Shown here: positions 949-47,780 of the stretch, one piece after another
How positions within the stretch are numbered: the first letter of the stretch is position 1
Layout: each line of letters starts with the position of its first letter
Assembly: GCA_000092065.1 (NCBI GenBank)
Contig: CP000596.1
From: Ostreococcus lucimarinus
Lineage: Eukaryota
Direction: 5' to 3' (one strand)
DNA: 64,000 nucleotides
The notes under the pieces: model-generated
The model's input: the letters and a program-made list of their open reading frames with translations, nothing else
What the model was told of the DNA's origin: nothing
The model's database searches: none
Position numbers and translations under genes: made by a program

Positions 949-1838
949 TCACAAGAGTTCCATCTCGGCTTGCAGCGCCTTGAGTTCGGCTTCTTCGTCC
1001 GCGGCGATCGCGGGCGCCGGCACGGACGGCAACGGCACGCTCGGCATCGCGGGTTCTTCCTCCAACTCCCGGGCGAGCTCGGAATCGAGTAATTTGTCTT
1101 CGACGTCCAACGCGTCCAACTCGGCCAACTCCTCCTCCAGCTCGTCCTCGTCCAACTCCGCCGCGAACCCCACCGGTTGTCCCAACGCCTCCTGCACCTG
1201 CCGCATCTGTTCCGTCTGTTCGCTGATCGCATCCATCGTCGCGTCGACGTCCTCGATCTTCGTCTCCTTGACCATCCTTCGCATCGCGTCCGCCCCGCTT
1301 CGCAGCGCTCCGTACGTCTCGCTCGTCGCCTTCGATCCCTCCAGCATGATCACCTGTTCCTGCAGCTTCAACTGCGACGTCGCCAGCGCGTCTAACTGCG
1401 CTTCGTACAATTTTTTCTTCTTCAGGTGCTGCAGCGCTCGTCGTTTGTTTCCCTGTCGATTCGCCTCGCGCGCGTTCGCCAGCTCCTCCGCGATCTTTCT
1501 CGCCATGAGCGACTCCTTCTTCTCCAGCATCTCGAGCGTCTGTTCGTCGTGCGCGCGCCGCGTCCGTCAGTCTCCCGCGTCGCGTCGCGAAACCGCGCTC
1601 GCCGCTCGCCGCTCGCCGCCGTCGTCGCGCGCGCGTTCGCGCCGCGCGGCGACGCGTTCGCGACGGGATCTCGTCGCGAATGCGAACGCGACGACTCGAC
1701 CGCGCGCGTTCCATCGCGACGCACCGTCTTGATCCTGTCGATGGCGTCCATCGGGCTGTGCGCGCGCGAGTCCGAGGACGCGTTGGACGCGCTCGTCGTC
1801 GGGCTCGCGCGACCGTGGCCGAATAACTTGCGAAACAT
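949..1838 (-). CDS. SNF7: ESCRT-III subunit Snf7/CHMP4 (Vps32), two exons: complement(join(949..1539,1725..1838)).
   Basis: Exon 2 is the ORF 949..1530, which has the Snf7 core (KRRALQHLKKKKLYEAQL; GQPVGFAAELDEDELEEELAELD; VPLPSVP). Exon 1 is MFRKLFGHG...PMDAIDRIKT, the canonical Snf7 N-terminus. It ends at a GTGCGT donor. The 185-nt intron carries a CTGACGG branch point about 25 nt before a CAG acceptor. Spliced together, the exons give ETLEMLEKKESL, matching CHMP4 ETEEMLEKKQEFL. Confidence 0.8.
1540..1724 (-). other. Inferred spliceosomal intron of the SNF7 gene (185 nt).
   Basis: GTGCGT donor; CTGACGG branch point 25 nt upstream of AACAG|ACG. The splice restores the conserved Snf7 N-terminus. 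Confidence 0.7.
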
Positions 1839-1948
1839 GACGCGAGGGACGAGGAGTGCGGCGCGGCGGTGGGCACCGACGAGACGGCGACGCGAGACGA
1901 CGGAGAGAGATGACGCGCACGAAGAGATCACACGGCGCTCGCGATGAG

Positions 1949-4040
1949 TTACGAATTCATGCTATCCGCGAGGGCGTCGAAGGCGTTGCGAGCGACGACG
2001 GGGGCGGGTTCGGCGAGCTTGGGCGCGGGCGCGGCGCGCTCGCGAGGCGCGGGCGCCGATTTCTCGGCGGCGGCGGGCTTGTCCTTGGGCGCGGGTGTGT
2101 CCTTGGACTTGCCGTCCTTGCCGTCCTTGGGCTCTGGTCTGCCTTTGGCGAAGCGAAATTTGTCGTCGAGCTCGAGGGAGAGCTTGGTGAGCTCGAGTTC
2201 GAGGTCTTTGACGTCGTCGCCGGCGTCCTTGGCGGCTTGAATCTTCTCCTTGAGTTCCTTCTCCTCTTTGAACTCCTTGCGCTTGACCGCGCCGACGGAG
2301 CGCTTGAGATCTTCGGCTTGCCAATCGCGACCGGCTTCCTTGAGCGCCTCTTCGCGCGGGCGAGCGCCGCCGAAGAGCGAGCTCTTCGCCGCGGCGCCGA
2401 CGGGGGCGTCGGTGGAACGCTTTTGCAAGTTCAGTTTGGGCCTCGCGGCGCGCTCCTCGGGAGTCGCTTCGCGGAGTTCTTCCTCTTTGCGCGGGGCGAA
2501 CGAAGACTTGCGGCCCCATCTGTCGCCATCGGAATCTTTCGGTTCGTCGTATTGCTTGCGCTCGGTACGTTCGGGGTTTTCTTCCGAGCGAATCGGAATC
2601 GCTTCGCGCGGCTTGTCCTCGACGTACTTGACGTCTACGGGCTTAGCGCCACCGAAGAGCGAGCTTGAGCCCGCGCTCGCGCTCGTAGGAGCGGCTTCCG
2701 AGCGTGGTTTGAGCTGAAGCTTCGGGCGATCGCCTCGCGGAGCGTAACCATCATCCGACGGCGGCTCGGCGGCGGCGGTGCGAGAACGCAAAGAGCCCCA
2801 GTCGCGGTCGCGTTCTTCGCGCGGAGGTCGATCGTCGTATCGCGAATCACGCTCCGGTAACTGTTTTCTGTCTCTACTCCAGCTGTCGCTTTCATCCGCG
2901 CGCGACGGTCCGAGATCCTCACGCGGCGGCCGGTCTGCGAAATCGCCAAATCCCGGTCTGCGCTCCTCGCGGTCGCCGTAGCGATCGTCGCCGCCGCCGT
3001 AACGGTCGCCACCTCTCTCGGCGTAACGGTCGCCAAATCCTGTTGCACGCCTGTCGCCGCCGTAACGATCATCTTGCGGCGGCGCGCGACGGTCCGCGCC
3101 CCAGTTAGAGCTCGTATCCGCGCGAGAAGGACCTTGCTCTTCGCGAACCTCTCTGTCGCCATATTCACCGTCGCGGCGGTCGTCTCGATCGTACCGACCC
3201 GGACGACGCTCATCACTGCGATCACCGCCGCCGTAACGATCACCACCGCCGTAACGATCACCACCGCCGTAACGATCACCGCCTTGGTTGAATCCACCAC
3301 CGAGACCGACGCCTCCGTCGTCGTCCGGTCGCGAGCTCGGCCCACTCGGCAGCACGACGTCGTCGCCGCGTCCTCGACCGAACGCCGATCCACCGACTCG
3401 TCCCGGAGGCGCGTACGACGACCCACCCGACGCACCCGCGAATTCTGCGAGCGAAAGTTTCACCCCTTTCGTCTTCTTCTTCGGTTCCTTCACCTTGGCC
3501 GCCGCCCCGAGCGACGGAAACGCTCCGCTCGCGTCCGCTTCCGCCGCCTCCCCGCCGAGCGACGGGAACGCCTGCGCCGGCACCGCTAACGATTCCACTC
3601 CATCGTTTCCTTCCTTCGTCTGCGTGAATCGCGAAAGCGCGCGTCGTTCCGTCAGTGCGCGCTCGTTTTCGTCGAGTTTAGCTTTTAAAAATCGAGCCCA
3701 CGTCCGAGCCGCGATCTCCGCGCGAACCGTCTCGACCGCGCCGCGCCCTCGATCGCGCGCCTCGTCGCCCCGGCGTCTCGCGAACGATGCGCGCGCAATT
3801 TCTCCATCATCTCGCGCGCGAATCGCGCGCGCGCGCGCGTCGCGCGCGTCGCGGGCGACGCGCACGCGTCGCCCCACGGCGCCGCCATCGGTCGGGCGTC
3901 GTTCGATGCATTTCGCGCCGCCGACGCGCGCGCGACGCGTCGCGCGCGTCCGCGACGCGCGACGCGCGTCGTGAGGATTTTTCAATCGCGCGCTACGATC
4001 GTACCTGTGCGCTCCACGCGCTGGTCGTGCCCCAAGCCAT
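1949..4040 (-). CDS. EIF4B: Plant-type translation initiation factor eIF4B, two exons: complement(join(1949..3619,4005..4040)).
   Basis: The large exon has twin FPSL motifs followed by KKKTKGVKLSLAEF (Arabidopsis eIF4B has SFPSLKEA...KKKKMTLSEF). It also has DRYGGG repeats and a K/E-rich C-terminus. The mini exon MAWGTTSAWSAQ resembles plant eIF4B MSKPWGGIGAWA. GTACGA donor; the 385-nt intron has a CTGACGG branch 30 nt before CACGCAG|ACG. Confidence 0.75.
3620..4004 (-). other. Inferred spliceosomal intron of EIF4B (385 nt).
   Basis: GTACGA donor directly after a 12-codon first exon. CTGACGG branch point, then a CAG acceptor that restores the ORF frame at TKEGNDGVESL. Confidence 0.6.
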
Positions 4041-4200
4041 GTTTCGTTGTGCGGGACGATCGGCGCTGGGTCTTTACGCCGATGCCGGGCCGAAGGAGAG
4101 GCGCGGCGGCGAGGCGAGGCGAGGCACGCGAACCGATGTCAAATGAAGGTTTATTATGACAACTGATTATGAAAGATGGATGCGTGATGCGCGTGCGCGT

Positions 4201-8152: not shown

Positions 8153-8200
8153 ATTTACTGTAAATACTACACACACACATTTCTCGCTTAAAAGTATCCG

Positions 8201-10318: not shown

Positions 10319-12664
10319 TTACTCGTCGTCGTCGCCGTCGATTTGTGCCTCGCGAGCGATTTCGTCGTCCGATTCGAACAACGAACGGACCGCGGGAAGG
10401 AGTTTGGGGAGCGACGATAATCCGGCAAAATCGACGCTCATCAAATCGAACGCCACGGCCGTGCGCTCGGTGTAAGTCCCGTCAAAGATTGGGATTTTAG
10501 GGTATCGCTGCGAAAAATGCGTGAGAATGGTGCGATAGGCGCCGGCGTCGATGCCGGTTTGCACAGCCTCCTTGGTCGTCGAATGCCGCTTCTTCACGGC
10601 TTCTTCCTCCATACCGTTCTCGAACGTCGCTTCGTGGACGAGGAGCGTGGCGTCGCGCGCGGCCGCGACGAGACTCGGACACGGGCGAGTGTCACCAGAA
10701 TACACCATCGTCCATCCTCGCTTGCCGACGAGCTTGGCGCCGTACGCGTGCGCGCAGTGATGCACGGGTACGGCGACAATTTCGTCCAAATCTGATCCCA
10801 TGAGCGCGGTGCGCAGTCGCGCCACCTGTGGGCTCATCGTCTCGCTCGACCATTTATCCTGCGTCGTCTCGCTCAAGTCGATGAAATCACAGTGTAAGCG
10901 TTCGAGATCCTCGTAGTAGTCCAAGAAGCGGCGCAGCGCGCGAGGACCGACGACGGGAATGATTGGCGGCTCCACGCCGTCTCGACGAAAGATCTCGGCG
11001 CGAGCGGTGAGAATGCGCGGTAAACCGACGTGATGGTCGGCGTGAATGTGCGAGATCCACACCATTCTCATCTCTCGCAACTTTTCATCCACCGCGCTCG
11101 CGCCGAAGCGACGAATCATTTGCGCCAGCGATCCTTCGCCGGTGTCGAGCATGATGTTCCCTCGGTACCCTTCGCCGCCGAACTGCATGGAAAATCCCGA
11201 GACGTTGCGATACTTTGCCGGCACCGCAGATCCAGTGCCTAAGAATACGAGCTCGACGTCACCAGGTTTGAGCTTTCGCAAATATTCAGGCTCTGGAAGT
11301 TCCGCGCCCGGACGCGCCTCGGCGGACGGCGACGGCGGCGGGGTCGGTTTCATCGCCTCGTTCGCCAAGTCTATCGTCCTTTGCTCGATATCTCTACGAT
11401 GTACGAAGCCAGGCACGTATCTGGGCACCGCGCTCATGTCCGCTCCGGCGTTCTTCGTCGGAATCAGCGTAAACTTGAACATATTTTTCCCCGCCAAAGC
11501 GTTCGGGACGTCTGCGGGCACCCCGTCGCGCCGCTTGTCATCTTTTGAAGGCGACGGCGGGGGCGATCTCGGCACATTATTCTCTGGAAACACGGTCGCA
11601 CTGACTGCGTGCAGCCTGGCTTGAATTCTCGCCGACGACGCGAACACGGGAACGTCGTCCATGGCGTCGGAGTTGGCGAAGACGTGCGCCGCGTCTTTCG
11701 GCGCGCCGCCGAAGACGGATTTCACGAGCGCGGCGTACTCCTTCGTGGACACAATCGCCGCGCTGGCCAAGTGCACGACGACGCTCAAGTCTGATAGTTC
11801 GCCGAAGAGCTCGCCGCCGCGAGTCGTCGCCTCGCGCACGTGCGCCGTCGTGGGCGCGTCGAACACGACGACGCGCGGTCCCGGTTGCTCCGGTCCGACG
11901 CACATCTCCGGCGACACCACCGAACCGTCGTCCAGCGTGATCGACTCCCCCCGCACCAACCGCCCGCGCTGCGGCCCGTTCGGCACGCCTAATTCCACCG
12001 CCGCCCGCATGTCAAATTTTCCCGGTATCGCCGCCAACTTGACGTCGTAACTCGCCACCTCATCGCTCGCGTCCTCGTCCGCTCTCGCGCGCTTCGCCGC
12101 GCGTCCCACCGCCGAATCCGTCCCGTCGTCCCTCGTCTCCCCCCCGAGCACGACGGCCGATATCGCCACCTTGCCGTCGTCCGCGACGACGCTCCGCGCG
12201 CGCCTCGCCGCGCCTCGCGTCGTCAGTTCCACCGCGCGTCCGCTCCCGAACAGCGTCCGCACCGCCCGCGTCAGCGCGCGCAACCGCCCGTCCGGTCCGC
12301 ACACCTCGACGCGCCTTCGCTCGACGCCCGCGTCGAGCCCCCGCCGCGTCTCCGCCTCGTCGCTCATCGTGAGCAGCGTCCCGACCAACCCGCCCGCCGC
12401 GCGCGAGTCCGCGCGCGTCAGCAGCACCCGCTCGCATCGTTTCAGCGCCTTGACGCGTCGCTCGACGCACAATCGCTGAAATCCCTCGCCGACGTTGAAG
12501 ACGACGCGCGCGTCATCCGTGCACAGCAGCACCGACGCGCACGTCGCGTCGCGCGCGTCCGCGCCGGGGTGCAGCACCTGGACGTACGCGCCGCCGACGC
12601 GTCGCGCGCGCGACGGACCCGACATGCGCCGCGCGAGCGTCTCGACGACGCGCCGCGTCGACAT
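10319..12664 (-). CDS. TRZ: tRNase Z long form (RNase ZL / ELAC2-like tRNA 3' endonuclease).
   Basis: The C-terminal metallo-beta-lactamase domain has the HxHxDH motif (WISHIHADHHVGL) and a tRNase Z C-terminal region (HFSQRYPKIPIF). The N-terminal half is a degenerate pseudo-MBL domain, typical of ELAC2. Confidence 0.85.
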   Translation of the reverse strand: MSTRRVVETLARRMSGPSRARRVGGAYVQVLHPGADARDATCASVLLCTDDARVVFNVGEGFQRLCVERRVKALKRCERVLLTRADSRAAGGLVGTLLTMSDEAETRRGLDAGVERRRVEVCGPDGRLRALTRAVRTLFGSGRAVELTTRGAARRARSVVADDGKVAISAVVLGGETRDDGTDSAVGRAAKRARADEDASDEVASYDVKLAAIPGKFDMRAAVELGVPNGPQRGRLVRGESITLDDGSVVSPEMCVGPEQPGPRVVVFDAPTTAHVREATTRGGELFGELSDLSVVVHLASAAIVSTKEYAALVKSVFGGAPKDAAHVFANSDAMDDVPVFASSARIQARLHAVSATVFPENNVPRSPPPSPSKDDKRRDGVPADVPNALAGKNMFKFTLIPTKNAGADMSAVPRYVPGFVHRRDIEQRTIDLANEAMKPTPPPSPSAEARPGAELPEPEYLRKLKPGDVELVFLGTGSAVPAKYRNVSGFSMQFGGEGYRGNIMLDTGEGSLAQMIRRFGASAVDEKLREMRMVWISHIHADHHVGLPRILTARAEIFRRDGVEPPIIPVVGPRALRRFLDYYEDLERLHCDFIDLSETTQDKWSSETMSPQVARLRTALMGSDLDEIVAVPVHHCAHAYGAKLVGKRGWTMVYSGDTRPCPSLVAAARDATLLVHEATFENGMEEEAVKKRHSTTKEAVQTGIDAGAYRTILTHFSQRYPKIPIFDGTYTERTAVAFDLMSVDFAGLSSLPKLLPAVRSLFESDDEIAREAQIDGDDDE

Positions 12665-15404: not shown

Positions 15405-16377
15405 TTACGTCTCGTCCGCGGTCAAGTTGGCGTTCTTGTAGTTGACGGCGTATTCGCGAATGTTGCCGACGATGAAAAACGCGCCGCAGATGCGCACGGT
15501 GCGCGCGAAACCACCCTTGTATAACGCGCGAATACCGCCCGTTTTGTACGTTTCAGACAGAGCGTGCGTGGCGGAGGTGAATTTGGAGCCGCTCAAATCG
15601 CTCTGCATGAGCGTCTTCGACGTGTCGATCGGGTGCGTGAGGCCCGCGGCGAAGGTGCCCGCGAGCGACGCGCCCAGGACGCTCGAGGCGAAATCGCCCA
15701 AATTCGGTTGCGCTTCCTTGATCTTGTTCGTCAGCACCGGTCCGAGACCGAGGTATCCCGCGGTGTAGATGCTCTCGCGCGCCGCGCACGACACCGTCCC
15801 TCGCCACATCTTCGCGAGACCTCCTTGTTTCACGACGGCGGCCACCGTCCCCCCCGGACCGAGGCCCATCTTTTGCTGTTGAATCACCGTCAAATCCACC
15901 GGCGAGTACAGCGCGCTCGACACCGCCCCCGCCGCCATGGCGCATCCAATTTGCTCCGCGTCGCTCATTCCTCGCTCACCGTTCGTGATGACGCGCTCGA
16001 TCGCCCCATTCACCGCCACCTGCGCCGCGGTGATGGGCGCCAGCGACGCCGCGTTCGCGAAGACGCCGCGGTACCATCCCGCGATCGACCGCGGCAGCGC
16101 TCTCGAGTCCTGCACGCAGATCTTAAACGTGATCAGCGGCACTGCGCGCGATTCGATCGCGGTCCCGTCAGTCTCCGCGCCGTCGTCGTCATCCGTCACA
16201 TCGCGCGACCGCCGTTATCCATTACATTAATCACATCGCGTCACTCGACCATCATCGCGCGTCTCGCGCCGTCGCCTCGCCTCGATCGTCGCACGCACTC
16301 TGCACGCACGTCTCCACGATCCCCCCGAACGCGCCCACGGCGAGATTCTCCGCGTCCGACAGCGGGACGCGCGCCAT
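15405..16377 (-). CDS. Mitochondrial carrier family (SLC25) protein, two exons: complement(join(15405..16141,16299..16377)).
   Basis: Three Px[DE]xx[KR] carrier signatures (PLITFKICVQ, PVDLTVIQQQ, PIDTSKTLMQ). Exon 1 MARVPLSDAENLAVGAFGGIVETCVQ supplies the missing first transmembrane helix. GTGCGT donor; the 157-nt intron has a CTGACGG branch 25 nt before CGCGCAG. Confidence 0.75.
16142..16298 (-). other. Inferred spliceosomal intron of the mitochondrial carrier gene (157 nt).
   Basis: GTGCGT donor, CTGACGG branch, CAG acceptor. The splice joins GIVETCVQ to MPLITFKICVQ, recreating the carrier helix 1 plus signature. Confidence 0.65.
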
Positions 16378-18416: not shown

Positions 18417-21400
18417 ATGCGCGCCGAAGCCGCGTCGCACGCGACAGCGCGAGAGCACATCGTGCGCGCGCGTCCACACCGCGCGCGTCGAGCGCCGGCG
18501 CGCACAGCTGCGCCATCGTCGTCGCGAATTCGTTCCGTGCGCGAGCCCAACTTGGATAGCGCAGACCGCGAAGAAATCGCCTCAAACGACGCGCTCAGGC
18601 GCGCTCGCGGCGAGACGAGCACGTCGAACGATGACGAGTCAACGATCGCGTCGTTTGTCGCGAGCGCAGGGGCTCGAGAGACGATAGATTTAGGCGCGCG
18701 CGCGTCGTTGGCTGCTGGATGGGACGCTCTGGCGAGACGAGTGCGAGACGCGCGGCGAGACGCCGATCGAATGCCGGCGTGCAAGTTTGACAGCGGGTGC
18801 TTGCGGTTCGTGATCGATGTGCCGCGAGACGCGCGGGCGCTGCGATGGGTGAGCGAGGTGAGCGGGAAGGTGAGGAGTGGAACGCCGGCGTTTTATTGGT
18901 CGCCACGAGCGAAGACGGCGAGCGGAAGCGCGGTGGGCAAGGGCGGATCAGCGTCGAAGGAGACGGCGATGGAAACGACGAGGAGTGATAAGTTGGATTT
19001 TGACGCCGCACGCGGGTCGCGCGCGGGTTTTGGGTCGTGCGCGACGTGGACGGACGCAGGGAACGAGGACGAGACGTCATTTCGGCGGCGCATCGCTTCG
19101 ATGCGGAGGTTTCTAAGCGAGCATAAAGACGCTCGTGCGGGGTCTCGAGTGTATGGCGCCGGAAGGTTCGATCCTGGTCGCGCGCCCGAGGAGGAGTGGG
19201 CGTCGTTCGGGACGCATTATTTCTTTTTGCCCACGCTCGAAGTCGTGGAGGGCGTCAAGAGCGCCACGTTGACGGTTTCCGTGGCGTGGGACGCGCGCGG
19301 TGAAGAAAACTGCGGTCCATCGGCCAAGTCACTCGTCCAAGCGCTTGATGATGCGTGCGAGACGCTCAAGCGCTCAATGGGTGTCGAAAAGAGTTCAAAC
19401 AAGGCGTTACCCCCGGGCGCGGCGCACGTCGTCGACCGTGCGCTGGTGCCCGATCAAGACGGATGGTCCAAAGACGTGTCCTCCGTCATCAGCCGCATTA
19501 GAGTATCGCGAGCATCCGTGAGCGCTAGCGTGCGGGACAAAGAGGATGCCTGGATCGACTTAGGGAGCAGCTTTGACGAATCAGATTCGCCAGATGTGCG
19601 AACGGCGTTAGAATCGCTTGGTCGCGCGGCTGGAGTCGAAGCCCCGAGCGCGGTTCTCGATCAATTCGAAGCGATGACGATGGCCATGGATGGCGGACTG
19701 TACAAAGATGACTCAACAATGGAGGGCATGGTCGACGCTTTGCTTCTCGGCGGTGAAACCGTCGATCCGTTACGAAAAGTCGTCTTGGCGCGGAGAAGCA
19801 AGCTCAACCTGAACACGCCTGTGGATACTTTTGCCTTGGTCTCGAGGCTGCAATCTCGAGATCCAGATGCGTATCAATTCGTTTTAAGACACCCCAACGG
19901 TGAGACCTTCCTAGGTTCGACGCCTGAGCGCTTGTTCTTATGTCAAGGGGGTCGCGCGGTGAGTGAAGCCGTGGCTGGCACGCGCGCCAGAGGCGCCGAC
20001 GACGGTGAAGACGCGGCTTTGGCGTATGACATGCTTCTGTCGCCCAAGGAGCACGAAGAGTTTGCAATCGTGCGTGAAGAAGTTCGTCGTGCACTGGGCG
20101 ATGTCGCCGACGGTGGAAATGATGGCGTGGAAGTTGAGCTTGAAAAAGGTATCTTGCGCAACGTTACCGTGCAACATTTATACTCGCGTCTCTCTGCGCC
20201 CTTGGCCAGCGGCAAGACAGAGGCTGATTTACTCGATGCGCTGCATCCCACGCCCGCGGTGTGTGGATACCCGCGCAAAGCTGCGCTAGACACGCTTCGT
20301 GCGGTGGAGTCGTTCGATCGCGGACTTTACTCGGGACCGCTCGGGTGGATAAGCGCGGATGGCGCTGAATTCGCCGTCGCCATTCGTTCAGCGCTGGTGC
20401 ACCCCGACGGTGATGAGGTGTCTTTGTACGCGGGCGTCGGTGTCGTCGGTTCCGCCAACGCGCAATCCGAATGGCACGAATTGAACTTGAAGACAAAACC
20501 CCTCGAGTCACTTCTTGCGCCGGTGACACCGCTCGCGAGCTTGCCAAATCCCAACGCAGCGTGGGCAACGATATTGATCGGTGAGCTCGTACGCGGCGGC
20601 GTGACGACATTCTGTATCGCTCCTGGAAGTCGTTCGACGCCTCTCGCACTTGCGGCTGAGAAACACGTCGAAGCAAACGTGGTCGTGTGTATTGACGAAC
20701 GTTCTCTTGGGTTTTATGCATTGGGATACGCAAAAGGCGCGGCCCAGCCCGCTGCGGTGATTTGCAGCAGCGGCACGGCTGTGGCTAATTTACTGCCATC
20801 CGTCGTCGAAGCGTCAGAAAGCTCAACCCCGTTATTATTACTCACCGCAGATCGACCGTATGAGTTGCGCCACACTGGTGCGAATCAAACGATTGACCAG
20901 GTGAAAATTTTTGGTTCGTACGCTCGATTCAACGCCGACTTGGCTCCACCCGGAGACGGCGCGCCTGCGCGCGCCTGCGCCACCATGGCTGCGACGGCGC
21001 TTCGATATTTGAGAGGAACGAACCCTGGACCGGTGCACCTAAACTGTGCTTTTCGCGAACCGCTCGGTCCGCAACGTGTGGACTGGGACTCAGCGGCTGC
21101 GCTTAAGGGGTTGGAGAAATGGGAAGAGTCGTCGACGCAGTTCACCATTGGCAATGCCACCGCAGGAACGATGCACGACGGCGGCGCCTGGCAAGCAGCG
21201 CTATCTCAAATCGCAAACGCTAAGCGCGGATTGCTAGTAGTTGGAAGTGGCTCGTCTGCAGCGGACTCAATCGCGGCGACTGCGATCGCTAAAACGCTGG
21301 GCTGGGCTGTCGCCGCCGACGCCACGAGCGGTATTCGCGTGGGCGCGGGTGAGGATGAATCCGTGCGTAAGATTCCTATGATCGATTACGTATTGGTGGA

Positions 21401-24400
21401 ACCGAGTGCGCATGATGCGTTGAGACCGGATGTTATCCTGCAAATTGGTGCCCGTTTGACGTCCAAGAGGCTATGCCAGTTCCTTGAAGCGAGCGCGATT
21501 GAGAATAATGCTGAGTGGATCGTCGTTGAGCCGACTCCGAACCGAGTGGATCCGGCGCATTGTGTGAGTGTTCGAGTTGAATCGTCCATCGGATACGCTT
21601 TGGAAGTTTTGGAGAGCGCGCTAAGTCACGAGAGCGGTTACGACACGAGTGACTCAAAAACATCATGCATCGCCTTTGCCGAGCGCGCCGTCGCTGTCGG
21701 CGCCGCAGTCGCACGCGAAGCCGCGATGGCCCTCAACGACATCACCGCCAACGAAGGTATGTCCGAGATGGCTGTCGCGATCGCCATCAGCGAGGGTCTA
21801 CCTGATTCTATGGGTTTCTTCTTGGGTAACTCCATGCCCATCCGCGATGTCGACGCATTCAGTGGAATCAAAGAATTCTCCGAAGGTTTAAATTTTGATC
21901 GTGAAGACTGCGCGACGTCGGCGTACGGAATTCCCGTCACGGCGAATCGAGGCGCGAGTGGTATTGACGGTGTGATATCTTCAGCCGCGGGATATGCTGC
22001 AGGCCTTGGACATCCGGTTACACTCATCATCGGCGATGTGTCGTTTCAGCATGATTCCAATGGACTACTGTTCCTTCGCGAGCGTCCCGGTCAACCACCG
22101 GTGACGGTCGTCGTCGTCAATAATGGCGGCGGTGGAATTTTCAATTTTTTACCCGTCGCCTCGCAGGTTGACGATAAGTCGTTCAATCGTTTGTTTGCCA
22201 CACCGCCGGATGTGTCCAGAAGAGGACTGTGCGAGGCTCATCGCGTCGCCTATGCGCATCCAACGTCGGTTAGTGAGTTCGGTGAGGCGCTCAGCGCTGC
22301 GTGGAACGAAAATCGTCACAGCGTCATCGAAGTGACCACGTCCCGCGCTCGAAATTTGATTCAGCACAAGTTAGTGCAGCGGCGATGTGCACGAGCCGCA
22401 CGACAAGCCCTTGAGCTAACGACTACGTCGACGTCAAAGACGATTCAGAGTATTGAAGTGGCTTCGTTCTCACTTCCTCTGAAGAAACCCACTACAGCGA
22501 ATGCGTCATCGACGACACGGGACGGATGGCTTCTGAAGGTCACCCTGAGCGATGGTGTCGTCGGTTACGGTGAGTGTTCTCCTCTGGATGGACTTCATCG
22601 CGAATCGTACGAAGAGAGCGGCGCGCAACTTTCCGTCGTCGCTTCGCTCATGAACAGCATGGAAGTTCCTACGAATGTTGCTCTGCTCAACGGCGCCTTT
22701 GCAGCCTGGATTGAAGATTGCGTCGGCGTGCGCTCGACGAGCGAGTTGTTTCCCACTGTTCGATTTGCGTTGGAGTCAGCAATTGCGAACGCGCTCGCCG
22801 CAAGCGAAGGCAAGACGCTTTCTCGCGTCATGACTGGCGACGAGGTGATGAACTCCGTCTCTGTGAATGGACTCGTTGACGCGACGACTGATGTCGCCGC
22901 TGCGCGCCGCGAAGCGCGCGCGCTCGTGGACGCCGGTTATACCTGTTTAAAAGTCAAAGTGGCTCGGGGTCTTGGTAGTGATGGCGCTCGAGCAGACGCG
23001 GAACGACTCGCTCAGATTCGAGACGAAGTCGGTCCCAGCGTCGCGCTCCGTGCTGATGCGAACAGGCGTTGGGATTTGACGGAAGCGCTCGATTTCGGCG
23101 CGCGAGCGCAAGAACTCAACGTGGGTTTGCAGTACGTCGAAGAACCCACTCGTGCGGCACATGAAGTCGCGGCGTTCCATTTCACCACCGGCATAGCCGT
23201 GGCTTTGGACGAGACCATCGACGACATTCTTTGCGAGTCTTCAAGCTTGGCCGAGGCAAGCGCAGCGATTTCACGCGTTGCGGATCAGTCCACAGGTATC
23301 GTAGCTGTGGTGCTCAAACCATCCGTCATTGGAGGTTTAGAAGCGACGTCTTTAATTGCGCGCATCGCAATGTCTCGAGGTGTCCGGCCCGTGATTTCTA
23401 GCGCGTTCGAAAGTGGCATTGGATTAAACGTCAGCGCTCACCTCGCGGCGACGCTCGACGATGTTTTGGCTCGTGAGATTCAAGCAGCCAGAGACTCTTT
23501 GGTGACGGGCGACGACACCGAGCGTCCGAACACGCTGGATATAAAACCTTTGATTTTGGCTTTAGACGCGCAACCAACATCGCACGGCCTAGGAACGGCG
23601 TCCTGGTTTGACGGCGACGTGATGTTCCCCGAAGTCGTCCCCGTCCGGAAAGGAAGCGACGGGATGTCCATACACTTACTCGAAGATACCGACAAGACTA
23701 AACGTCAGACATCAGTGGTATCCATGTTCCAGGATGTTTCGAAGCGTTGGGGTGAAGATTCCACAATCACGGTTGAAACATCGAATGGAATTTACGAGGT
23801 ACAGTGCGTCGAGCGCACTCCAAGCGGAGGCAACTCGAGCGGCGAAACGATCGTACTATTGCATGGATTCATGGGATCGAGCGAAGATTGGGATATCGTT
23901 GCCCGCGGTCTGACCGTTCGTAATAACGCTCGAGTGATCGCAATCGATTTGCCCGCTCACGGACGAACGACGTGTACGCCGCATCGAGGGAAATCCATGC
24001 GCGATTGCCTGCGCGTGGAAGCCATGCGAGATGTAGTCGCCGCAGCGATGACCAAGCTCGGATGTCCCAACGAATGTACGCACGTTGTCGCTTATAGCAT
24101 GGGTGCACGCATTGCACTTACTCTCGACGAATCAAGTCTGAAGTCTATCGTCTCCATCGGCGGTTCTCCGGGATTGTGCGGGGAAGACGCGCGAGTCGCG
24201 CGGGTCGCTCAGGACGACGACTTAGCCGCCGCTTTACTCAAGGGTGATGATGCGCGTGAGTTCGCCAAAGTTTGGTATCGACGAGGTTTGTTCTCTACTC
24301 TCGTCGCTCATCCACGATTCGGTGGCGTCAATGGGCTCGCCGAACGTCGCGGATCAGTCATTGGGACGAACGCAGAGGCGCTCGCTGCGTGCCTCGCCGC

Positions 24401-24656
24401 CGCCTCACCCGGACGTCAAATCGAGGGTTGGTCGACGCTTTGTCGTCTTCGCGGTAAGCTCACGATGATCGTGGGCGACAAGGATGAAAAGTTCAAATCG
24501 ATATCGCGCAAGATGCAAGACGCCATGAGTGAAGGGGTGGTAGACGCGGCGCCGTGCAAAGTATTTATCGTTCCTCGATGCGGACACGCGGCGCATTTGG
24601 AAGCGCCTGAGTCCGTCGTCGCGCGCGTTCTCGAGGCAATCGACGCGCAGCAGTAG
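18417..24656 (+). CDS. PHYLLO: PHYLLO tetramodular phylloquinone-biosynthesis protein: MenF (isochorismate synthase), MenD (SEPHCHC synthase), MenC (o-succinylbenzoate synthase) and MenH (alpha/beta hydrolase) in one 2079-aa ORF.
   Basis: The N-terminal chorismate-binding domain appears complete (PERLF, GTRARG, HPTPAVCGYP, GLYSGPLGW, AGVGVVGSANAQSEW). A TPP-dependent MenD core follows (WATILIGELVRGGVTTFCIAPGSRSTPL, GDVSFQHD). Then an enolase-superfamily MenC (KVKVARG, LDETI), and an alpha/beta hydrolase module with VLLHGFMGS. The module order matches the plant/algal PHYLLO locus. Confidence 0.9.
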   Translation: MRAEAASHATAREHIVRARPHRARRAPARTAAPSSSRIRSVREPNLDSADREEIASNDALRRARGETSTSNDDESTIASFVASAGARETIDLGARASLAAGWDALARRVRDARRDADRMPACKFDSGCLRFVIDVPRDARALRWVSEVSGKVRSGTPAFYWSPRAKTASGSAVGKGGSASKETAMETTRSDKLDFDAARGSRAGFGSCATWTDAGNEDETSFRRRIASMRRFLSEHKDARAGSRVYGAGRFDPGRAPEEEWASFGTHYFFLPTLEVVEGVKSATLTVSVAWDARGEENCGPSAKSLVQALDDACETLKRSMGVEKSSNKALPPGAAHVVDRALVPDQDGWSKDVSSVISRIRVSRASVSASVRDKEDAWIDLGSSFDESDSPDVRTALESLGRAAGVEAPSAVLDQFEAMTMAMDGGLYKDDSTMEGMVDALLLGGETVDPLRKVVLARRSKLNLNTPVDTFALVSRLQSRDPDAYQFVLRHPNGETFLGSTPERLFLCQGGRAVSEAVAGTRARGADDGEDAALAYDMLLSPKEHEEFAIVREEVRRALGDVADGGNDGVEVELEKGILRNVTVQHLYSRLSAPLASGKTEADLLDALHPTPAVCGYPRKAALDTLRAVESFDRGLYSGPLGWISADGAEFAVAIRSALVHPDGDEVSLYAGVGVVGSANAQSEWHELNLKTKPLESLLAPVTPLASLPNPNAAWATILIGELVRGGVTTFCIAPGSRSTPLALAAEKHVEANVVVCIDERSLGFYALGYAKGAAQPAAVICSSGTAVANLLPSVVEASESSTPLLLLTADRPYELRHTGANQTIDQVKIFGSYARFNADLAPPGDGAPARACATMAATALRYLRGTNPGPVHLNCAFREPLGPQRVDWDSAAALKGLEKWEESSTQFTIGNATAGTMHDGGAWQAALSQIANAKRGLLVVGSGSSAADSIAATAIAKTLGWAVAADATSGIRVGAGEDESVRKIPMIDYVLVEPSAHDALRPDVILQIGARLTSKRLCQFLEASAIENNAEWIVVEPTPNRVDPAHCVSVRVESSIGYALEVLESALSHESGYDTSDSKTSCIAFAERAVAVGAAVAREAAMALNDITANEGMSEMAVAIAISEGLPDSMGFFLGNSMPIRDVDAFSGIKEFSEGLNFDREDCATSAYGIPVTANRGASGIDGVISSAAGYAAGLGHPVTLIIGDVSFQHDSNGLLFLRERPGQPPVTVVVVNNGGGGIFNFLPVASQVDDKSFNRLFATPPDVSRRGLCEAHRVAYAHPTSVSEFGEALSAAWNENRHSVIEVTTSRARNLIQHKLVQRRCARAARQALELTTTSTSKTIQSIEVASFSLPLKKPTTANASSTTRDGWLLKVTLSDGVVGYGECSPLDGLHRESYEESGAQLSVVASLMNSMEVPTNVALLNGAFAAWIEDCVGVRSTSELFPTVRFALESAIANALAASEGKTLSRVMTGDEVMNSVSVNGLVDATTDVAAARREARALVDAGYTCLKVKVARGLGSDGARADAERLAQIRDEVGPSVALRADANRRWDLTEALDFGARAQELNVGLQYVEEPTRAAHEVAAFHFTTGIAVALDETIDDILCESSSLAEASAAISRVADQSTGIVAVVLKPSVIGGLEATSLIARIAMSRGVRPVISSAFESGIGLNVSAHLAATLDDVLAREIQAARDSLVTGDDTERPNTLDIKPLILALDAQPTSHGLGTASWFDGDVMFPEVVPVRKGSDGMSIHLLEDTDKTKRQTSVVSMFQDVSKRWGEDSTITVETSNGIYEVQCVERTPSGGNSSGETIVLLHGFMGSSEDWDIVARGLTVRNNARVIAIDLPAHGRTTCTPHRGKSMRDCLRVEAMRDVVAAAMTKLGCPNECTHVVAYSMGARIALTLDESSLKSIVSIGGSPGLCGEDARVARVAQDDDLAAALLKGDDAREFAKVWYRRGLFSTLVAHPRFGGVNGLAERRGSVIGTNAEALAACLAAASPGRQIEGWSTLCRLRGKLTMIVGDKDEKFKSISRKMQDAMSEGVVDAAPCKVFIVPRCGHAAHLEAPESVVARVLEAIDAQQ

Positions 24657-24746: not shown

Positions 24747-25470
24747 TTAATCCTTCTTCCCGAACAAGGAGAACGGGTTGAATTTCTTGCCCTCGAGCGG
24801 ATCCTTCATCTTAACAGGGCCCTTGGACATAGACTTCGCGAAGCGGCTCGTGCCGCCCACCGTCTTGTTCAACGCCGCGGTCTTCTTCGCCATCTCCTTG
24901 CGCTTCGCCTCGGCCTTCACCGCCGCCGCCTTCTTCGCTTCAGCCGCCTTCGCCGCCGCCGCCTTGCTCTTCTCCGCGAGCGCCTTGGACTTGGCCTTCG
25001 CGTCCTCGGCCTTCTTGCGCGCGGCTTCTTGGTTCTTCTTCATCATCTCACGGCGGTTGGACGTGTCGATGGTCTTACCAGCCTGTGGTTATCTCGCGAA
25101 TCGTTCGCGTCAGTCAGTCCTCGGCTCGCGCTCGAAAAGATCTTCCCCAGGGTGTCCCGCGCGGGACTGATCTTGACCATATCCAGGGCGCCCGCGTCGC
25201 CGCGCGAGCCCTTCGCGGCGGTCTCGTGCAAATACGCGAGGCGGCACGAAACCTTCGCGCCGTGCGCGCGCGCGTGAGCGACGCTGACACCGCGATCGCG
25301 CGCGCGCGTCGCACGAATTCCGCTCGACGCGTCGAGTGGATAAAGAGCGCGCGAGAGACCAGACGACGCGCGCCGCGCACCTTGACGACGAGACCGCGGC
25401 GCTGCGACTTGGCGGGCTTAGTCGCCGTGAGCGCGCGGGGGGCGGTGATCTTGGACGACAGGGCGAACAT
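24747..25470 (-). CDS. Small Lys/Ala-rich protein with a transit-peptide-like N-terminus, two exons: complement(join(24747..25082,25381..25470)).
   Basis: Exon 1 is MFALSSKITAPRALTATKPAKSQRRGLVVK and ends at a GTGCGC donor. The 298-nt intron has a CTGACTGACG branch 25 nt before CCACAG. Exon 2 AGKTIDTSNRREMMKKNQEAARKKAEDAKAKSK... is K/A-rich and ends KFNPFSLFGKKD. The identity is not recognised; the intron assignment is moderate confidence. Confidence 0.4.
25083..25380 (-). other. Inferred spliceosomal intron of the K/A-rich protein gene (298 nt).
   Basis: GTGCGC donor after codon 30. CTGACTGACG branch, CCACAG acceptor. Confidence 0.45.
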
Positions 25471-25482
25471 AGCGATGACGAG

Positions 25483-25540
25483 GGTGGGAGAGTGCGGCTC
25501 CAGGGACGAGGTGGGAGAGTGCGGCTCCAGGGACGAGATG
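25483..25540. repeat. Tandem duplication of a 27-28 bp unit (GGTGGGAGAGTGCGGCTCCAGGGACGAG x2).
   Basis: Read directly from the sequence. It lies in the short spacer between the CTNNBL1 3' end and the downstream gene's 5' end. Confidence 0.9.
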
Positions 25541-39641: not shown

Positions 39642-40935
39642 GGCGACGGCGCCGCGCGCGCGTCTCGCCGCGCGCGTCGATCGCGCGACGACGCGTCGCG
39701 CGGTGACGCCGCGACGTCGGCGACGCGCGCCGCGGCGTCGCGCGCGCGCGCTCGCGCCCGCGGCGTCGGCGTTCGCCGTGCCGTTCGCCGTGCTCGCGGC
39801 GGCGTCGCTCGGACGCGTCGTCGCGTCGCGAACGCGCGTCGGACGCGCGGCGACCGCGCCCGTGTGCGCGATGGCGTTCGGCGCCGCGTTCGCCGCGATC
39901 GGCGCGCTGCCGAGCGACGGCGCGCGCGGCGTCGCGGAGGCGCAAAAGATGTGCGCGTTCGCCGCGACGCCGATGACGCTCCTGCGAGCGAACGCGCGCG
40001 CGGGAGGGACGAGAAGAAGGACGCGCGCGATGGCGCGAGCGTTCGTCGTCGCGGCGATCGGGAGCGCTTTCGGCGCGGTGTTCGGGGCGCGCGGCGCGAG
40101 CGCGGCGTTCGGGGGGGCGTTTAGTTGGAAACTCGCCGCGGCGCTGGCGGCGAAAAACGTCGGCGGTGGATTGAATTACGTCGCCGTGGCGACGACGCTG
40201 GGGATGGATGGCGAAGAATTCGTCGCGGGACTGTGCGTCGATAACGCGATGGCGCTGGCGTACTTTCCGTTCATTTCGTGGTTGGCGCGACGCGAGGGCG
40301 AGCGAGGAAGCGGCGACGCGGCGGACGACGAGGACGACGCCGAGCGCGAGCGCGAGGCGACGACGGAGCGCGAGGCCGAGGACGCGGACGGCGCGGCGGC
40401 GCGCTCGGGCGCGGACGACGCGTTGTCGGCGTTCTTCGTCGCCGTCGGCTTCCTCGCCGCGGGCGAGCTCGTCGCTCGCCTCGTGGGCCAACCCGACGCC
40501 GTGCTCCCGATGGCGACGGTTTTCACCGTCGTTTTCGCGACTTTGGCGCCGAAACGCGCGGCGTCGCTCGCCGTCGCCGCGGAACCGCTCGCGAACGCGA
40601 TGCTCTTCGTGTTCTTCGTCGCCGCCGGCGCCGCGGGCGGCGTTTTGAGCGCTTCCACGTTTGCGCGATACGCCAACGTCTTCGTCTTCTCATTCATCCT
40701 GTACGCCGTCCATCTCGCCTTTGTATTCGTCGGCATTCGCGTCGACGCCGATCGCCGTCGCGAGTACGTCCTCGCGAGCAACGCCAGCATCGGCGGTCCC
40801 GCCACCGTGGCTTCGCTCGCCGACGCCGTCGGTTGGCGTTCGTTACGCGCGCCGGCAGTTTTAATCGCCACGCTCGCGAATTCCATCGCGACATTTCTAG
40901 GCTTAGCGCTCGCCGCAGTCCTTCGTAGTTCGTAG
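39595..40935 (+). CDS. DUF819-family multi-pass membrane protein (plastid envelope type). Start probably MATAPRAR (about 39640).
   Basis: Hydrophobic multi-helix protein with DUF819-like blocks ([40 protein letters not shown]; [19 protein letters not shown]). R/A-rich presequence. Confidence 0.65.
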
Positions 40936-41120
40936 TCCGTAGTCGCCGTAGTCCTTTTTTCCCGCAATATCCACAAATTCCACAGGTGCGGGCACAATTT
41001 TCTCCGTCTCAGAAATGTTTGCGAGGACGTCCAGTCACCACCGCCACGCCCCGCCATCGTCACTCGGCGTCGCGCGCCATGGACTCTCCCGCGCGCGCGA
41101 ACGCGTACGGGAACACCGGG

Positions 41121-41547
41121 ATGGAGACCGAAGTGAGACAGTTAAAGGTACGGCGCGAACGCGACGCGACGCGACGCGACGCGACGCGACACGACGACGA
41201 CGATCGCGACGAAGACGTCGAAATCAAAATCGAAATCAAATCGCGCACTGACGCCGAAACATCGCCGACTCGCGTCCGCGCAGGATCATCAACAAACGCG
41301 CGAAGAGTTGCTCAATCGCGTGCACGCGCTGAAGACAGAACTTCAGGATTGGCGGTATAAGATGGATAATCAGGTGAAGAATTACAAGGGCGAGTTGGCG
41401 AGTCTCAAGGAGACGTTGTCGAGCGAAGTGCAAGCGCTGAGGAAAGAATTAGAAGAGACGAGCGATCGGTTGAAGCGGTCGATCGTGAGCACAAGTAGCG
41501 TGAGTACCGGACATTCACCGGGATTGCATCGATTACCGCCGCCGTGA
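41121..41547 (+). CDS. Small coiled-coil protein, two exons: join(41121..41147,41284..41547). Function unknown.
   Basis: Exon 1 METEVRQLK ends at a GTACGG donor. The 136-nt intron has a CTGACG branch about 33 nt before CGCGCAG. Exon 2 continues the frame: DHQQTREELLNRVHALKTELQDWRYKMDNQVKNYKGELASLKETL... Third-position GC is lower than in neighbouring genes, so confidence is moderate. Confidence 0.45.
41148..41283 (+). other. Inferred spliceosomal intron (136 nt) of the small coiled-coil gene.
   Basis: GTACGG donor, CTGACG branch, CAG acceptor. The splice joins two ORF fragments that lie in different frames. Confidence 0.45.
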
Positions 41548-41988: not shown

Positions 41989-42011
41989 CATCACAACGCG
42001 ACTCGCTCCAC

Positions 42012-42587: not shown

Positions 42588-42611
42588 TAGACGACGCGCC
42601 GCCGATCTCGA

Positions 42612-42695
42612 TCAAGACCACAATGACTTAGACCAAGACCACGATGATTTAGACCAAGACCACAATGACTTAGACCAAGACCACGATGATTTAGC
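42612..42695. repeat. 21-bp minisatellite, 4 units (GACCAAGACCAC[A/G]ATGA[C/T]TTA).
   Basis: Read directly. It sits in the convergent 3' region between the PAS gene and the ChaC gene. Confidence 0.9.
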
Positions 42696-42886
42696 GTTCT
42701 TCGATGCGCGCGCGCTCTTGTTAGAATTACTTTCTTTACCTAATCTATTGTTTCATCACGCGCTTCTTCCCGTCCCGCGTTTCGACTAACGCGAAATGGG
42801 AAATAACCAAAGTTTTATCGCTCGCATAAGGATCGACGGGTCTTCCCTGTGTCTCCACCGCTGTCCTGGCGACTGTCGCCAACAAT

Positions 42887-43468: not shown

Positions 43469-43628
43469 GATGCCCACGTCGTGGTCTCGCGGCACGCGTT
43501 TCGCGCTCGAGCTCGCGCTGGCGACAGATCGGGCGCGATGCGCGTTCGACGCGCGCATCGCGAGCGAAGAAGCGAGGCGAACACTGGCGCGGCAGACGAC
43601 GACGCGTCGACGCTCGGCCACGCTCGCG

Positions 43629-44645
43629 ATGGCGCGCGCGACGGCGACGGCGCGCGCGACGGCGACGCGGAACGGCGCGCCGCGCGTCGTCGCGCGCGCG
43701 CGAGCGACGGCGCGCGCGGGCGCGGTGACGCGGCGCGCGAACGACGCTCGGGCGGCGAGGGCGGCGACGCTGAGGACGCGCGCGCGACGCGAGCGAACGC
43801 GCGCGCGCGCGAGCGACGCGCGCGTGGATGAATCCGACGATAGCTTCGCGTCCGCGAGCCTGTCGGCGGCGATCGCGCAGCGGGCGCTGATGATGATCGA
43901 ATCCAACGCCGTCGTGGGGTTGTCGCGGGGCGAACACGCGAGCGAGCTGGCGCGACGGTTGGCGGAGGCGCTGGAAAGCGGTGCGCTGGAGAACGTGAAA
44001 GTGGTGGCGCTCGAACCGTTGGCGGCGAAGGAATGCGCGGTGAACGGGCTAGAGATGCGATCGATCGATGAGGTGCGAGCGATCGACGTGACGTTCGCGC
44101 AGCCGAGCGAGTGCGCGGTGGTGGTGACGAACGGGCAGAAATCCATCGCGAGCGTGTTCGGACGAGAGACGACGCCGGTACAACCAGATATCGAACGCGC
44201 GAAGGCGGCAATGAAAAAGAGCGTCAAGGTGGTGCTGTTGAAGGAGCTTTTCGTGGATAAGATTGGCGGGTCCATCCCCATCGTTGTCGAGGCGGAAAAT
44301 TGGGAAGAACACGCGGAGGAGTTGGATGATTTATTTTTGGGCGACGCCGAGGTGTGGAGGCGAGGTGCGACGTTTGACGCGAACCCAAGAGGAGGGAAGA
44401 ACCCGTACGTCAGCGCCGACGGCTCGCACACGCTGTTAGACTTGCGATTTGAAGATCCCATCAACAGCGGTCGCTGGGAGTGCGGTTTGATGCTCGACGG
44501 CAAACCGTGCGGGCCGTACGAGTTACAATACGCGTTGGAAAACGATGTCGAAGGCGTGTTGGCGCATGGCATCTACACCCAAGCCGATGTCGTGATAACG
44601 TTGAATCCGGACACGTTAGAAGCGGTGACGATCGAACGCGATTAA
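43629..44645 (+). CDS. Ribose-5-phosphate isomerase A-like protein with substituted active-site/phosphate-binding motifs and a plastid-type presequence.
   Basis: RpiA-like fold. The C-terminus TFDANPRGGKNPYVSADGSHTLLDLRFEDPI...GVLAHGIYTQADVVI resembles RpiA ...PFVTDNGNYILDCHF..IEDP...GVVETGLF...ADVVIV. The canonical GLGTGST loop reads GLSRGEHAS. The DGADE region reads DVTFAQPSE. Confidence 0.6.
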   Translation: MARATATARATATRNGAPRVVARARATARAGAVTRRANDARAARAATLRTRARRERTRARASDARVDESDDSFASASLSAAIAQRALMMIESNAVVGLSRGEHASELARRLAEALESGALENVKVVALEPLAAKECAVNGLEMRSIDEVRAIDVTFAQPSECAVVVTNGQKSIASVFGRETTPVQPDIERAKAAMKKSVKVVLLKELFVDKIGGSIPIVVEAENWEEHAEELDDLFLGDAEVWRRGATFDANPRGGKNPYVSADGSHTLLDLRFEDPINSGRWECGLMLDGKPCGPYELQYALENDVEGVLAHGIYTQADVVITLNPDTLEAVTIERD

Positions 44646-44743
44646 CGCTTTAGACACTAGACGCCGAATAATTTGACTGCATTCATTCATCAAATCGCTA
44701 TTACTAAGCTAGCTAACGCAACGCATTTTCATCGATGCGCTGT

Positions 44744-47005: not shown

Positions 47006-47154
47006 CGCGCGCGTCCGCGAGTGACGCCGAACGCGAACGCGCGTCGGACATTCGTCGCGGCGACGCGCGAGGTGACGCGCGCGCGCGCGCGCTCAAACTT
47101 TAAATTTTTTCATTCGTATTTCATGTCAACGCGCGTCGCGATGCGGGCGAGAAA

Positions 47155-47780
47155 TCACGCGCTCGCGTCCGCGGACGGCGCGGCGTCCTTGGCGACGCCC
47201 GTGGAACCGAATCCGCCGGCGCCGCGCGCCGTGTCGTCCAAGTCGTCGCATTCGACGACTTCCGGCGTGAGAATTTGTTCGAGGATCAACTGCGCCACGC
47301 GATCGCCCTTCTTCACCTCGAAGTCTTCGTCGCCGTGGTTGAACAAAATCACCCCGACGTTGCCGCGGTAGTCGTAATCCACCACCCCCGCGCCGACGTC
47401 GATGAACTTTTTCCACGCCAAGCCCGATCGCGGGGCGACGCGCGCGTACGTCCCGAGCGGAATCGCGATCGACAGGTCTGTCTTCACCAATTCTTTCCCA
47501 CGCGCCGGCACGACGCAATCGTGCGCGCTGCGACATTCGCGATCGCGTCGTCTCGTCAGTCGCCGAAAATTCAAATTTCCCTCACCCTTCGCGCGCGCGC
47601 GCGTCGGCGTTCCCTTCGTCGCTCGTCCAACGACGCGGGCGGCCTTTCGCCCGCGCGAGACGCGGGAAAAATCGCGCTTTCGCACCTCGCCAGATCGTAT
47701 CCCGCCGCGCCTTCGCTCCCTCGCGTCGGCATCGTCGCGTCGTCGCTCAGTCGCTTCACGCGCAGCGCCGCGGACGCCAT
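47155..47780 (-). CDS. DUT: dUTP pyrophosphatase (dUTPase), two exons: complement(join(47155..47527,47686..47780)).
   Basis: Exon 1 is [31 protein letters not shown] (dUTPase motifs 1-2) and ends AG|GTGCGA. The 158-nt intron has a CTGACG branch 26 nt before TGTCGCAG. Exon 2 is [38 protein letters not shown]...[17 protein letters not shown]...GDRVAQLI...[10 protein letters not shown] (motifs 3-5). Confidence 0.85.
47528..47685 (-). other. Inferred spliceosomal intron of DUT (158 nt).
   Basis: The two halves of a complete dUTPase lie in different frames. They are joined exactly by GTGCGA...CTGACG...CAG. Confidence 0.75.

Follow-up and report, generated by a model that had tools for sequence, protein, structure and literature searches.

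A uniform set of 5'-proximal introns, most probably canonical U2-type spliceosomal introns, in 64 kb of the Ostreococcus lucimarinus genome

In this study, we analysed a stretch of 64,000 nucleotides (nt) from contig CP000596.1 of Ostreococcus lucimarinus (assembly GCA_000092065.1; the whole stretch is called the window below) and identified eight introns, each close to the 5' end of a protein-coding gene. They are almost certainly canonical U2-type (major) spliceosomal introns of the intron-poor nuclear genome of this species. The phenomenon itself is already known, and the new content is a few gene-model corrections. The original prediction, made from the sequence alone, had reconstructed six hidden introns, in the genes for SNF7 (CHMP4), eIF4B, a mitochondrial carrier, a K/A-rich protein, a small coiled-coil protein, and dUTPase, and had described them as yeast-like spliceosomal introns near the 5' end. 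All six are present at the predicted places with GT..AG boundaries, and transcripts, reference gene models, Pfam coverage, homologue N-termini, and conserved positions bear the description out. The list was incomplete: introns of MPP6 (99 nt with a TAG acceptor, outside the predicted range) and of a gene for an unnamed basic protein have been added. The exons and introns are as follows.

724-740, minus strand: exon 1 of the unnamed basic protein gene, 17 nt (MRDET plus 2 nt)
555-723, minus strand: its intron, 169 nt, GTGCGT donor, GACTGACG branch, TAG acceptor, phase 2
554-1, minus strand: its exon 2, which continues off the window
1725-1838, minus strand: SNF7 exon 1, 38 codons
1540-1724, minus strand: SNF7/CHMP4 intron, 185 nt, GTGCGT donor, GACTGACG, 27 nt, CAG acceptor, phase 0
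949-1539, minus strand: SNF7 exon 2
4005-4040, minus strand: eIF4B exon 1, 12 codons, MAWGTTSAWSAQ
3620-4004, minus strand: eIF4B intron, 385 nt, GTACGA donor, CACTGACG, 32 nt, CAG acceptor, phase 0
1949-3619, minus strand: eIF4B exon 2
16299-16377, minus strand: mitochondrial carrier exon 1, 79 nt
16142-16298, minus strand: mitochondrial carrier intron, 157 nt, GTGCGT donor, GACTGACG, 26 nt, CAG acceptor, phase 1
15405-16141, minus strand: mitochondrial carrier exon 2
25381-25470, minus strand: K/A-rich protein exon 1, 30 codons
25083-25380, minus strand: K/A-rich protein intron, 298 nt, GTGCGC donor, GACTGACTGACG, 27 nt, CAG acceptor, phase 0
24747-25082, minus strand: K/A-rich protein exon 2
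41121-41147, plus strand: small coiled-coil exon 1, 9 codons (23 if the in-frame upstream ATG at 41079 is used)
41148-41283, plus strand: small coiled-coil intron, 136 nt, GTACGG donor, CACTGACG, 32 nt, CAG acceptor, phase 0
41284-41547, plus strand: small coiled-coil exon 2
47686-47780, minus strand: dUTPase exon 1, 95 nt
47528-47685, minus strand: dUTPase intron, 158 nt, GTGCGA donor, GACTGACG, 28 nt, CAG acceptor, phase 2
47155-47527, minus strand: dUTPase exon 2
51866-51964, plus strand: MPP6 exon 1, 33 codons
51965-52063, plus strand: MPP6 intron, 99 nt, GTGCGC donor, GACTGACG, 25 nt, TAG acceptor, phase 0
52064-52510, plus strand: MPP6 exon 2

The splice signals are nearly uniform across the set. 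All eight donors match GT[AG]CG, as had been predicted for the first six; GTGCG is found in six, GTGCGT in three, and GTGCGTG in two. A CTGAC(G) motif had been placed 22-33 nt before a (C/A)AG acceptor. The motif was found, in the longer form ACTGACG in every intron (the original six included) and as GACTGACG in six of the eight (four of the original six), close to the 3' splice site and within narrow limits of spacing: the acceptor G follows the putative branch A by 25-32 nt in all eight and by 26-32 nt in the original six. The AAG alternative did not stand, the original six all ending in CAG; in the complete set, acceptors are CAG in six and TAG in two (MPP6 and the unnamed basic protein). 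The K/A-rich intron passes over a GAG 10 nt upstream of its acceptor. No polypyrimidine tract is evident in the eight introns (35-60% pyrimidines over the final 20 nt), and their GC content is 63-76%. Lengths range from 99 to 385 nt (mean 198 nt), and all eight introns lie within the first 17-114 nt, or the first 1-21%, of the coding sequence. The predicted lengths of 136-385 nt, first exons of 9-38 codons, and positions within 120 nt of the start hold for the six. The U12-type consensus comprises an [AG]TATCCTT donor and a TCCTTAAC branch close to the 3' end, and the GT[AG]CG donors and ACTGACG branches of these introns do not fit it.

The complete architecture, but not the branch motif by itself, is enriched in the window over chance. 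ACTGACG alone gave 15 matches against 10.8 expected, and the seven matches other than those in the introns are coding or antisense; the one at 61098 (plus strand) is antisense to an FMN_dh gene, and the one at 12221 (minus strand) is inside the open tRNase Z reading frame. A strict scan (GTRCG 60-400 nt upstream, then ACTGACG, then YAG 25-32 nt past the branch A) found 8 sites, compared with 0.92 ± 0.96 (maximum 6) in 200 dinucleotide shuffles of the window. The 8 sites are exactly the introns listed above, all sense-oriented and directly 5' of a coding open reading frame (ORF) in the right phase. Of the 118 candidate pairs from a weaker scan (GTRCG, CTGAC, and the first AG), most fell inside coding ORFs; that scan was too unspecific, and the strict one took its place.

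Transcripts show the removal of three introns. Exactly the SNF7 intron is missing from cDNA contigs L004-L006, exactly the small coiled-coil intron from eight cDNA contigs of eight runs (L007-L014), and exactly the K/A-rich intron from six transcript-type contigs of six samples (L015-L020); apart from that, all these contigs run colinear to the genome, with 99.4-100% identity. At the point where the genome continues with CGCGCG, L005 runs into A22; the ends of L009-L011, CCC(C)GTACTCTGCGTTGATACC, also depart from the genome; and L012 begins with an Illumina adapter. We take the CCC(C)GTACTCTGCGTTGATACC end to be the complement of the SMART template-switching/PCR oligo. Because of the A22 tail absent from the genome, the oligo complement, and the adapter, these contigs are cDNA from SMART-type libraries, and the exact loss of the SNF7, K/A-rich, and coiled-coil introns is therefore direct transcript evidence. 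Removal from mature mRNA is thus observed for three of the eight introns, and we infer it for the other five. The same contigs carry further transcript ends: the A22 tail marks a SNF7 poly(A) site at window position ~847 (minus strand), ~100 nt after the stop codon, and a template-switch junction at 43585 (minus strand) marks the 5' end of a minus-strand mRNA of a ChaC-like gene. Some cDNA contigs join adjacent genes, which points to transcripts that overlap or read through.

The spliced products agree with known proteins. The 271-amino-acid carrier is identical to XP_001422053.1 (MC-family transporter), the 155-amino-acid dUTPase to XP_001422063.1, and the 96-amino-acid coiled-coil product to XP_001421929.1; a 110-amino-acid version of the last was called on cDNA contigs. 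Exact copies of the 234-amino-acid SNF7 (P0001) and the 141-amino-acid K/A-rich protein (P0018 and P0032) are present in the protein collection, on short contigs from public sequencing runs. No exact match was found in that collection for spliced eIF4B (568 or 562 amino acids), MPP6 (181 amino acids), or the full-length unnamed protein. Splicing also extended the Pfam matches towards the N-terminus. The profile start moved from 8 to 2 for Snf7 (126.2 to 130.8 bits), from 27 to 4 for eIF-4B (54.4 to 58.6 bits), and from 12 to 2 for MPP6 (48.9 to 63.8 bits), while the Mito_carr score rose from 79.4 to 88.0 bits and the dUTPase match covered positions 2-129 of 129 (158.3 bits). In a HMMER search with the spliced eIF4B N-terminus, residue 1 of the homologues aligned with residue 1 of the query, and the homologues begin MAW(G/A)..(G/N)AW(A/S)xQV, like the spliced window model. 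The dUTPase junction agrees with the Micromonas commoda protein. An alternative ORF at 47126-47536 (minus strand) was rejected as the dUTPase, being in the wrong frame and without a Pfam match. The unnamed basic protein has the N-terminal motif WEFEAPKYFDF; the label 'TPX2-like', considered for the gene at 1-740, was dropped, since Pfam finds nothing in the full-length product.

Sequence differences were observed in or beside some of these genes. In eIF4B exon 2 (~3200-3260, minus strand), a GGDRYG repeat is one unit shorter in cDNA contig L004 (562 versus 568 amino acids), owing either to a polymorphism in repeat number or to a collapse during assembly. At 25505-25514, just upstream of the K/A-rich gene, the window differs from all transcript-type contigs by a small indel or tandem-repeat difference, which splits the BLAST alignment. 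A natural dUTPase allele (protein P0156; 12 ENA contigs) has an intron 1 nt longer, so that exon 1, intron, and exon 2 form one open 208-amino-acid frame; ORF callers consequently report an 'unspliced' dUTPase with a 53-residue insert.

The intron positions are conserved in other Ostreococcus lineages. The eIF4B homologue P0141 led to the 424-kb scaffold KZ155790.1 of the annotated NCBI assembly GCA_002158475.1 (L021), in which citrate synthase, SDP1, eIF4B, SNF7, and the unnamed protein gene are ordered as in the window. There, codon 12 of eIF4B is again followed by an intron, of 386 nt (GTGCGT donor, GACTGACG, TAG acceptor), and the annotated product P0141 is spliced at this point; SNF7 is interrupted by an intron of 190 nt at the matching codon (..DRIK(R)|TLEMLEKKE); and the intron of the unnamed gene, 151 nt long, shares position and phase with its window counterpart and lies just ahead of WEFTAPKYF. 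The exon-1 ATGs serve as gene starts in the annotation. The metagenome scaffolds L022 and L023, which come from other Ostreococcus-like lineages, share the position and phase of the dUTPase intron (GYDL(A/S)-S|A), and L022 also has the MPP6 intron (..GLK|FM..) and the small coiled-coil intron (..QLR|EHQQTREE) at the same codons. Codon and phase thus agree in all seven comparisons across the three loci. Identity between the intron interiors of L021 and the window is 0.65-0.66, compared with 0.55-0.59 after shuffling and 0.69-0.86 in the neighbouring exons. The signals of L022 are looser, with GTATGC and GTGGGT donors, branch-to-acceptor distances of 36-50 nt, and a CT-rich tract. Gene order also varies: dUTPase adjoins MPP6 in L022 (8600-10500) and L023 (8200-10400), while COG6 and another gene lie between them in the window (47100-52600).

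These features are those described for the introns of this species. Irimia and Roy analysed 560 introns of O. lucimarinus confirmed by expressed sequence tags (ESTs) and found ACTGAC in 87.2% and GACTGACG in 66.5% of the introns outside chromosome 2, along with an unusual 5' splice site consensus, GTGCGTG, which they read as a convergence of intron-poor genomes on strong, yeast-like signals (PLoS Genet 4:e1000148, 2008; PMC2483917). The organism, donor, branch motif, constrained spacing, and mean length of ~190 nt are the same in the window, and nothing essential differs. Lanier et al. (2008, PMC2367439) reported a mean intron of 188 bp and introns in 265 of 1670 expressed gene (EST) clusters, figures that agree with the 198 nt and ~8 of 40 genes of the window. 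A preference for GYGCGY donors across Mamiellales, with a standard U1 small nuclear RNA (snRNA), has also been described (bioRxiv 10.1101/2022.06.08.495308), and Verhelst et al. (2013, PMC3879977) set 'canonical Ostreococcus introns' against the introner elements of Micromonas. Another set of GT-AG spliceosomal introns is found in the same genome, in the low-GC half of chromosome 2; unlike the window introns, they are small, dense, and weak in signal (GTRNGT donors; only ~5% with the common branch hexamer). The window lies outside that intron-rich half, being intron-poor, with 62% GC, and on a 428-kb chromosome. The introns of the Saccharomyces cerevisiae type likewise number at most one per gene near the 5' end and have a near-invariant donor and branch with constrained branch-to-3'-splice-site spacing, but their consensus is GUAUGU and UACUAAC, whereas the window introns have GUGCGU and ACUGACG and are very GC-rich. 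The two lineages are unrelated, so the pattern is convergent. A review (PMC3488318) states that the remaining introns of reduced genomes are concentrated in the 5' portions of genes. We found no paper that quantifies a 5' bias of introns specifically for Ostreococcus. Mourier and Jeffares are said to have described such a 5' concentration in reduced genomes in 2003.

We propose a splicing scheme for these genes based on their signals. Each transcript would consist of a short first coding exon, a GC-rich intron of 99-385 nt, and a main exon. Recognition by the spliceosome would depend on the 5' splice site typical of the species, GU(G/A)CG, on a branch site that hardly varies, (G/C)ACUGACG, and on the first suitable YAG at a fixed distance of ~25-32 nt; given the lack of an evident polypyrimidine tract, the 3' end is probably defined mostly by the strength and spacing of the branch site. 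The uniform signals are those of the known 'intron-poor genome' syndrome and resemble those of yeast by convergence. The clustering at 5' ends most likely remains from 3'-biased intron loss by recombination with reverse-transcribed mRNA under genome streamlining, and some introns were possibly retained for an expression benefit; both of these points draw on general knowledge. The introns themselves are almost certainly old and vertically inherited, not mobile introner copies.

The alternative that survives best concerns the cause of the 5' bias, not the nature of the elements. The introns might have been kept by selection as promoter-proximal expression enhancers or regulated-retention switches instead of being passive remnants of loss, which we consider possible but rather unlikely. 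In O. lucimarinus, a positive correlation links the presence of introns to expression (Lanier et al. 2008, PMC2367439), but the published correlation is weak (R ~0.09), and the intron-bearing genes of the window are a functional mix, not obviously highly expressed. In favour of selection, position and approximate length are conserved between lineages while the sequence is not (385 versus 386 nt in eIF4B; 185 versus 190 nt in SNF7), and the eIF4B intron is retained in three cDNA contigs. Two readings that go further are doubtful: first exons of 5-38 codons may be systematically missed by the reference annotation, and the promoter-proximal introns may be selected as expression or retention switches. 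If the first were true, the real share of intron-bearing genes and the 5' bias would be above the published values.

Several observations weigh against the splicing of particular genes, above all eIF4B and the unnamed basic protein. Contigs L004-L006 start within the eIF4B intron and read through its acceptor unspliced, L004 retains the intron of the unnamed basic protein, and 24-mers across the eIF4B and dUTPase exon-exon junctions had no match in the JGI metagenome/metatranscriptome collection. Prokaryote-style callers, moreover, report ORFs without exon 1. On these grounds, some first exons could be non-coding, with downstream starts, motifs that arose by chance or belong to the 5' untranslated region, and unspliced transcripts. 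We regard this as very unlikely. The eIF4B intron is open in the reading frame of exon 2, but the resulting long ORF has no in-frame ATG until three codons from its stop, while adding exon 1 brings back the conserved MAW..AW..Q N-terminus together with positions 4-26 of the Pfam profile. The consensus architecture is complete in both introns and is found nowhere else in the window except in these eight, and both are kept in position and phase in L021 and used in its annotation. For these two genes, splicing is argued from signals, homology, and conservation rather than from transcripts. In L004-L006 the SNF7 intron is absent while the eIF4B intron-exon 2 boundary is present in the same contigs, either because the intron is retained or because very short first exons led to an assembly artefact; conceivably, assembly tip-clipping (graph simplification) of such 5' exons explains the unspliced paths of both genes. 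Another reservation about the U2-type, 5'-proximal description is that window genes may also have internal introns with non-consensus signals. Against this, no broken ORF was found among the window genes, and the cDNA contigs are colinear with the genome elsewhere. One candidate internal intron, an overlap of a UK/UPRT ORF with an Exo_endo_phos ORF (54524-54741), was rejected because in L022 the two orthologues are distinct genes, 225 nt apart.

The least tenable alternative is that the introns form a repeated introner family of recently inserted, transposon-like elements, as in Micromonas pusilla. The relatives M. pusilla and M. commoda carry introner elements (IEs; IE-A/B/D in CCMP1545 and IE-C/ABC-IE in RCC299), which come from the same order, Mamiellales, and have similar lengths, and the IE-C class of RCC299 has the same GACTGACG branch motif as the window introns (PMC3879977). 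Micromonas elements occur in hundreds to thousands of highly identical copies and are present in some close lineages but absent from others, whereas the window introns have no common interior sequence and keep their positions between Ostreococcus lineages. The original prediction had likewise seen no shared internal sequence, and aligning the eight introns all-against-all and each against the whole window gave no high identity among copies, only CG-rich low-complexity matches. A few intron pairs exceed dinucleotide shuffles (z up to 4.7), but these alignments are (CGCGAC)n or GCGCGC low complexity that also matches coding and intergenic DNA across the window; the best pair is a CG-rich microsatellite-like stretch, and interior pairwise local scores average z = 0.8. 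At the eight introns, neither terminal inverted repeats nor target-site duplications were found (local scores between the two ends 6-13 over 55 nt), and junction direct-repeat scores of 3-6 gave no junction duplications. Lengths spread over 99-385 nt, and the seven orthologous comparisons showed no presence/absence differences of the kind left by recent insertion. Conserved positions with interiors diverged to near the random baseline indicate old introns rather than recent insertions. Judged from these sequence comparisons, positional conservation and interior divergence exclude recent introner insertion for the eight introns, and the introner origin is extremely improbable.

The practical consequence is a small set of gene-model corrections. 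Reference XP_001421933.1 (147 amino acids) corresponds to MPP6 exon 2 only, compared with 181 amino acids after splicing, and XP_001422054.1 (98 amino acids) is without K/A-rich exon 1, compared with 141 amino acids in the cDNA contigs; the introns of these two genes, hence at least two of the eight, are missing from the reference models. The exact spliced SNF7, eIF4B, and unnamed-protein products are not among the deposited reference proteins. Prokaryote-style calls on hundreds of marine metagenome contigs leave SNF7, eIF4B, the carrier, dUTPase, and MPP6 truncated at the N-terminus. The consensus scan (GTRCG ... ACTGACG ... 25-32 nt ... YAG) recovered exactly the window introns and could repair Ostreococcus gene models in genomes and metagenomes. 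The main value of the observation lies in the correct rediscovery of a published genome property from sequence alone, and its practical value is small but real. Two further truncations that had been suspected, in the SDP1 lipase and a SANT protein, are not supported. The SDP1 ORF (701 amino acids) starts with ATG and is called as such on more than 300 contigs, and the ATG-start SANT/Myb ORF (863 amino acids) is identical to XP_001422058.1. The motif scans of the window found no donor/branch/acceptor set upstream of either gene, and Pfam coverage pointed to no further window gene with a missing N-terminus.

The remaining features of the window fit its host genome. Protein look-up gave exact matches to reference proteins of O. 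lucimarinus CCE9901 on a record of 428,333 bp, including citrate synthase (XP_001421921.1), and the same region is found at ~99.5% identity on hundreds of marine metagenome contigs. GC content is 54-69% along the window and 62% overall, and long ORFs are densely packed on both strands. Pfam scans indicate ~40 genes, of which ~8 have an intron and none more than one. Rfam found no match in the whole window, and hence no intron-hosted small nucleolar RNAs or snRNA genes at the gathering threshold. Between 38514 and 44650, real genes on both strands are overlapped by long antisense ORFs, for example at 40176-41141 (minus strand) opposite DUF819 and in the first 380 (N-terminal) codons of a 'ChaC' ORF opposite ribose-5-phosphate isomerase; such ORFs typically occur in GC-rich DNA and can mislead ORF-based calling. 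At 18417-24656 (plus strand), one uninterrupted ORF of 2079 amino acids fuses Chorismate_bind, TPP-enzyme, MR_MLE, and alpha/beta-hydrolase domains. It is a PHYLLO-type MenF/MenD/MenC/MenH fusion for phylloquinone synthesis, and identical copies of the protein are present in 389 blocks of the assembly collection.

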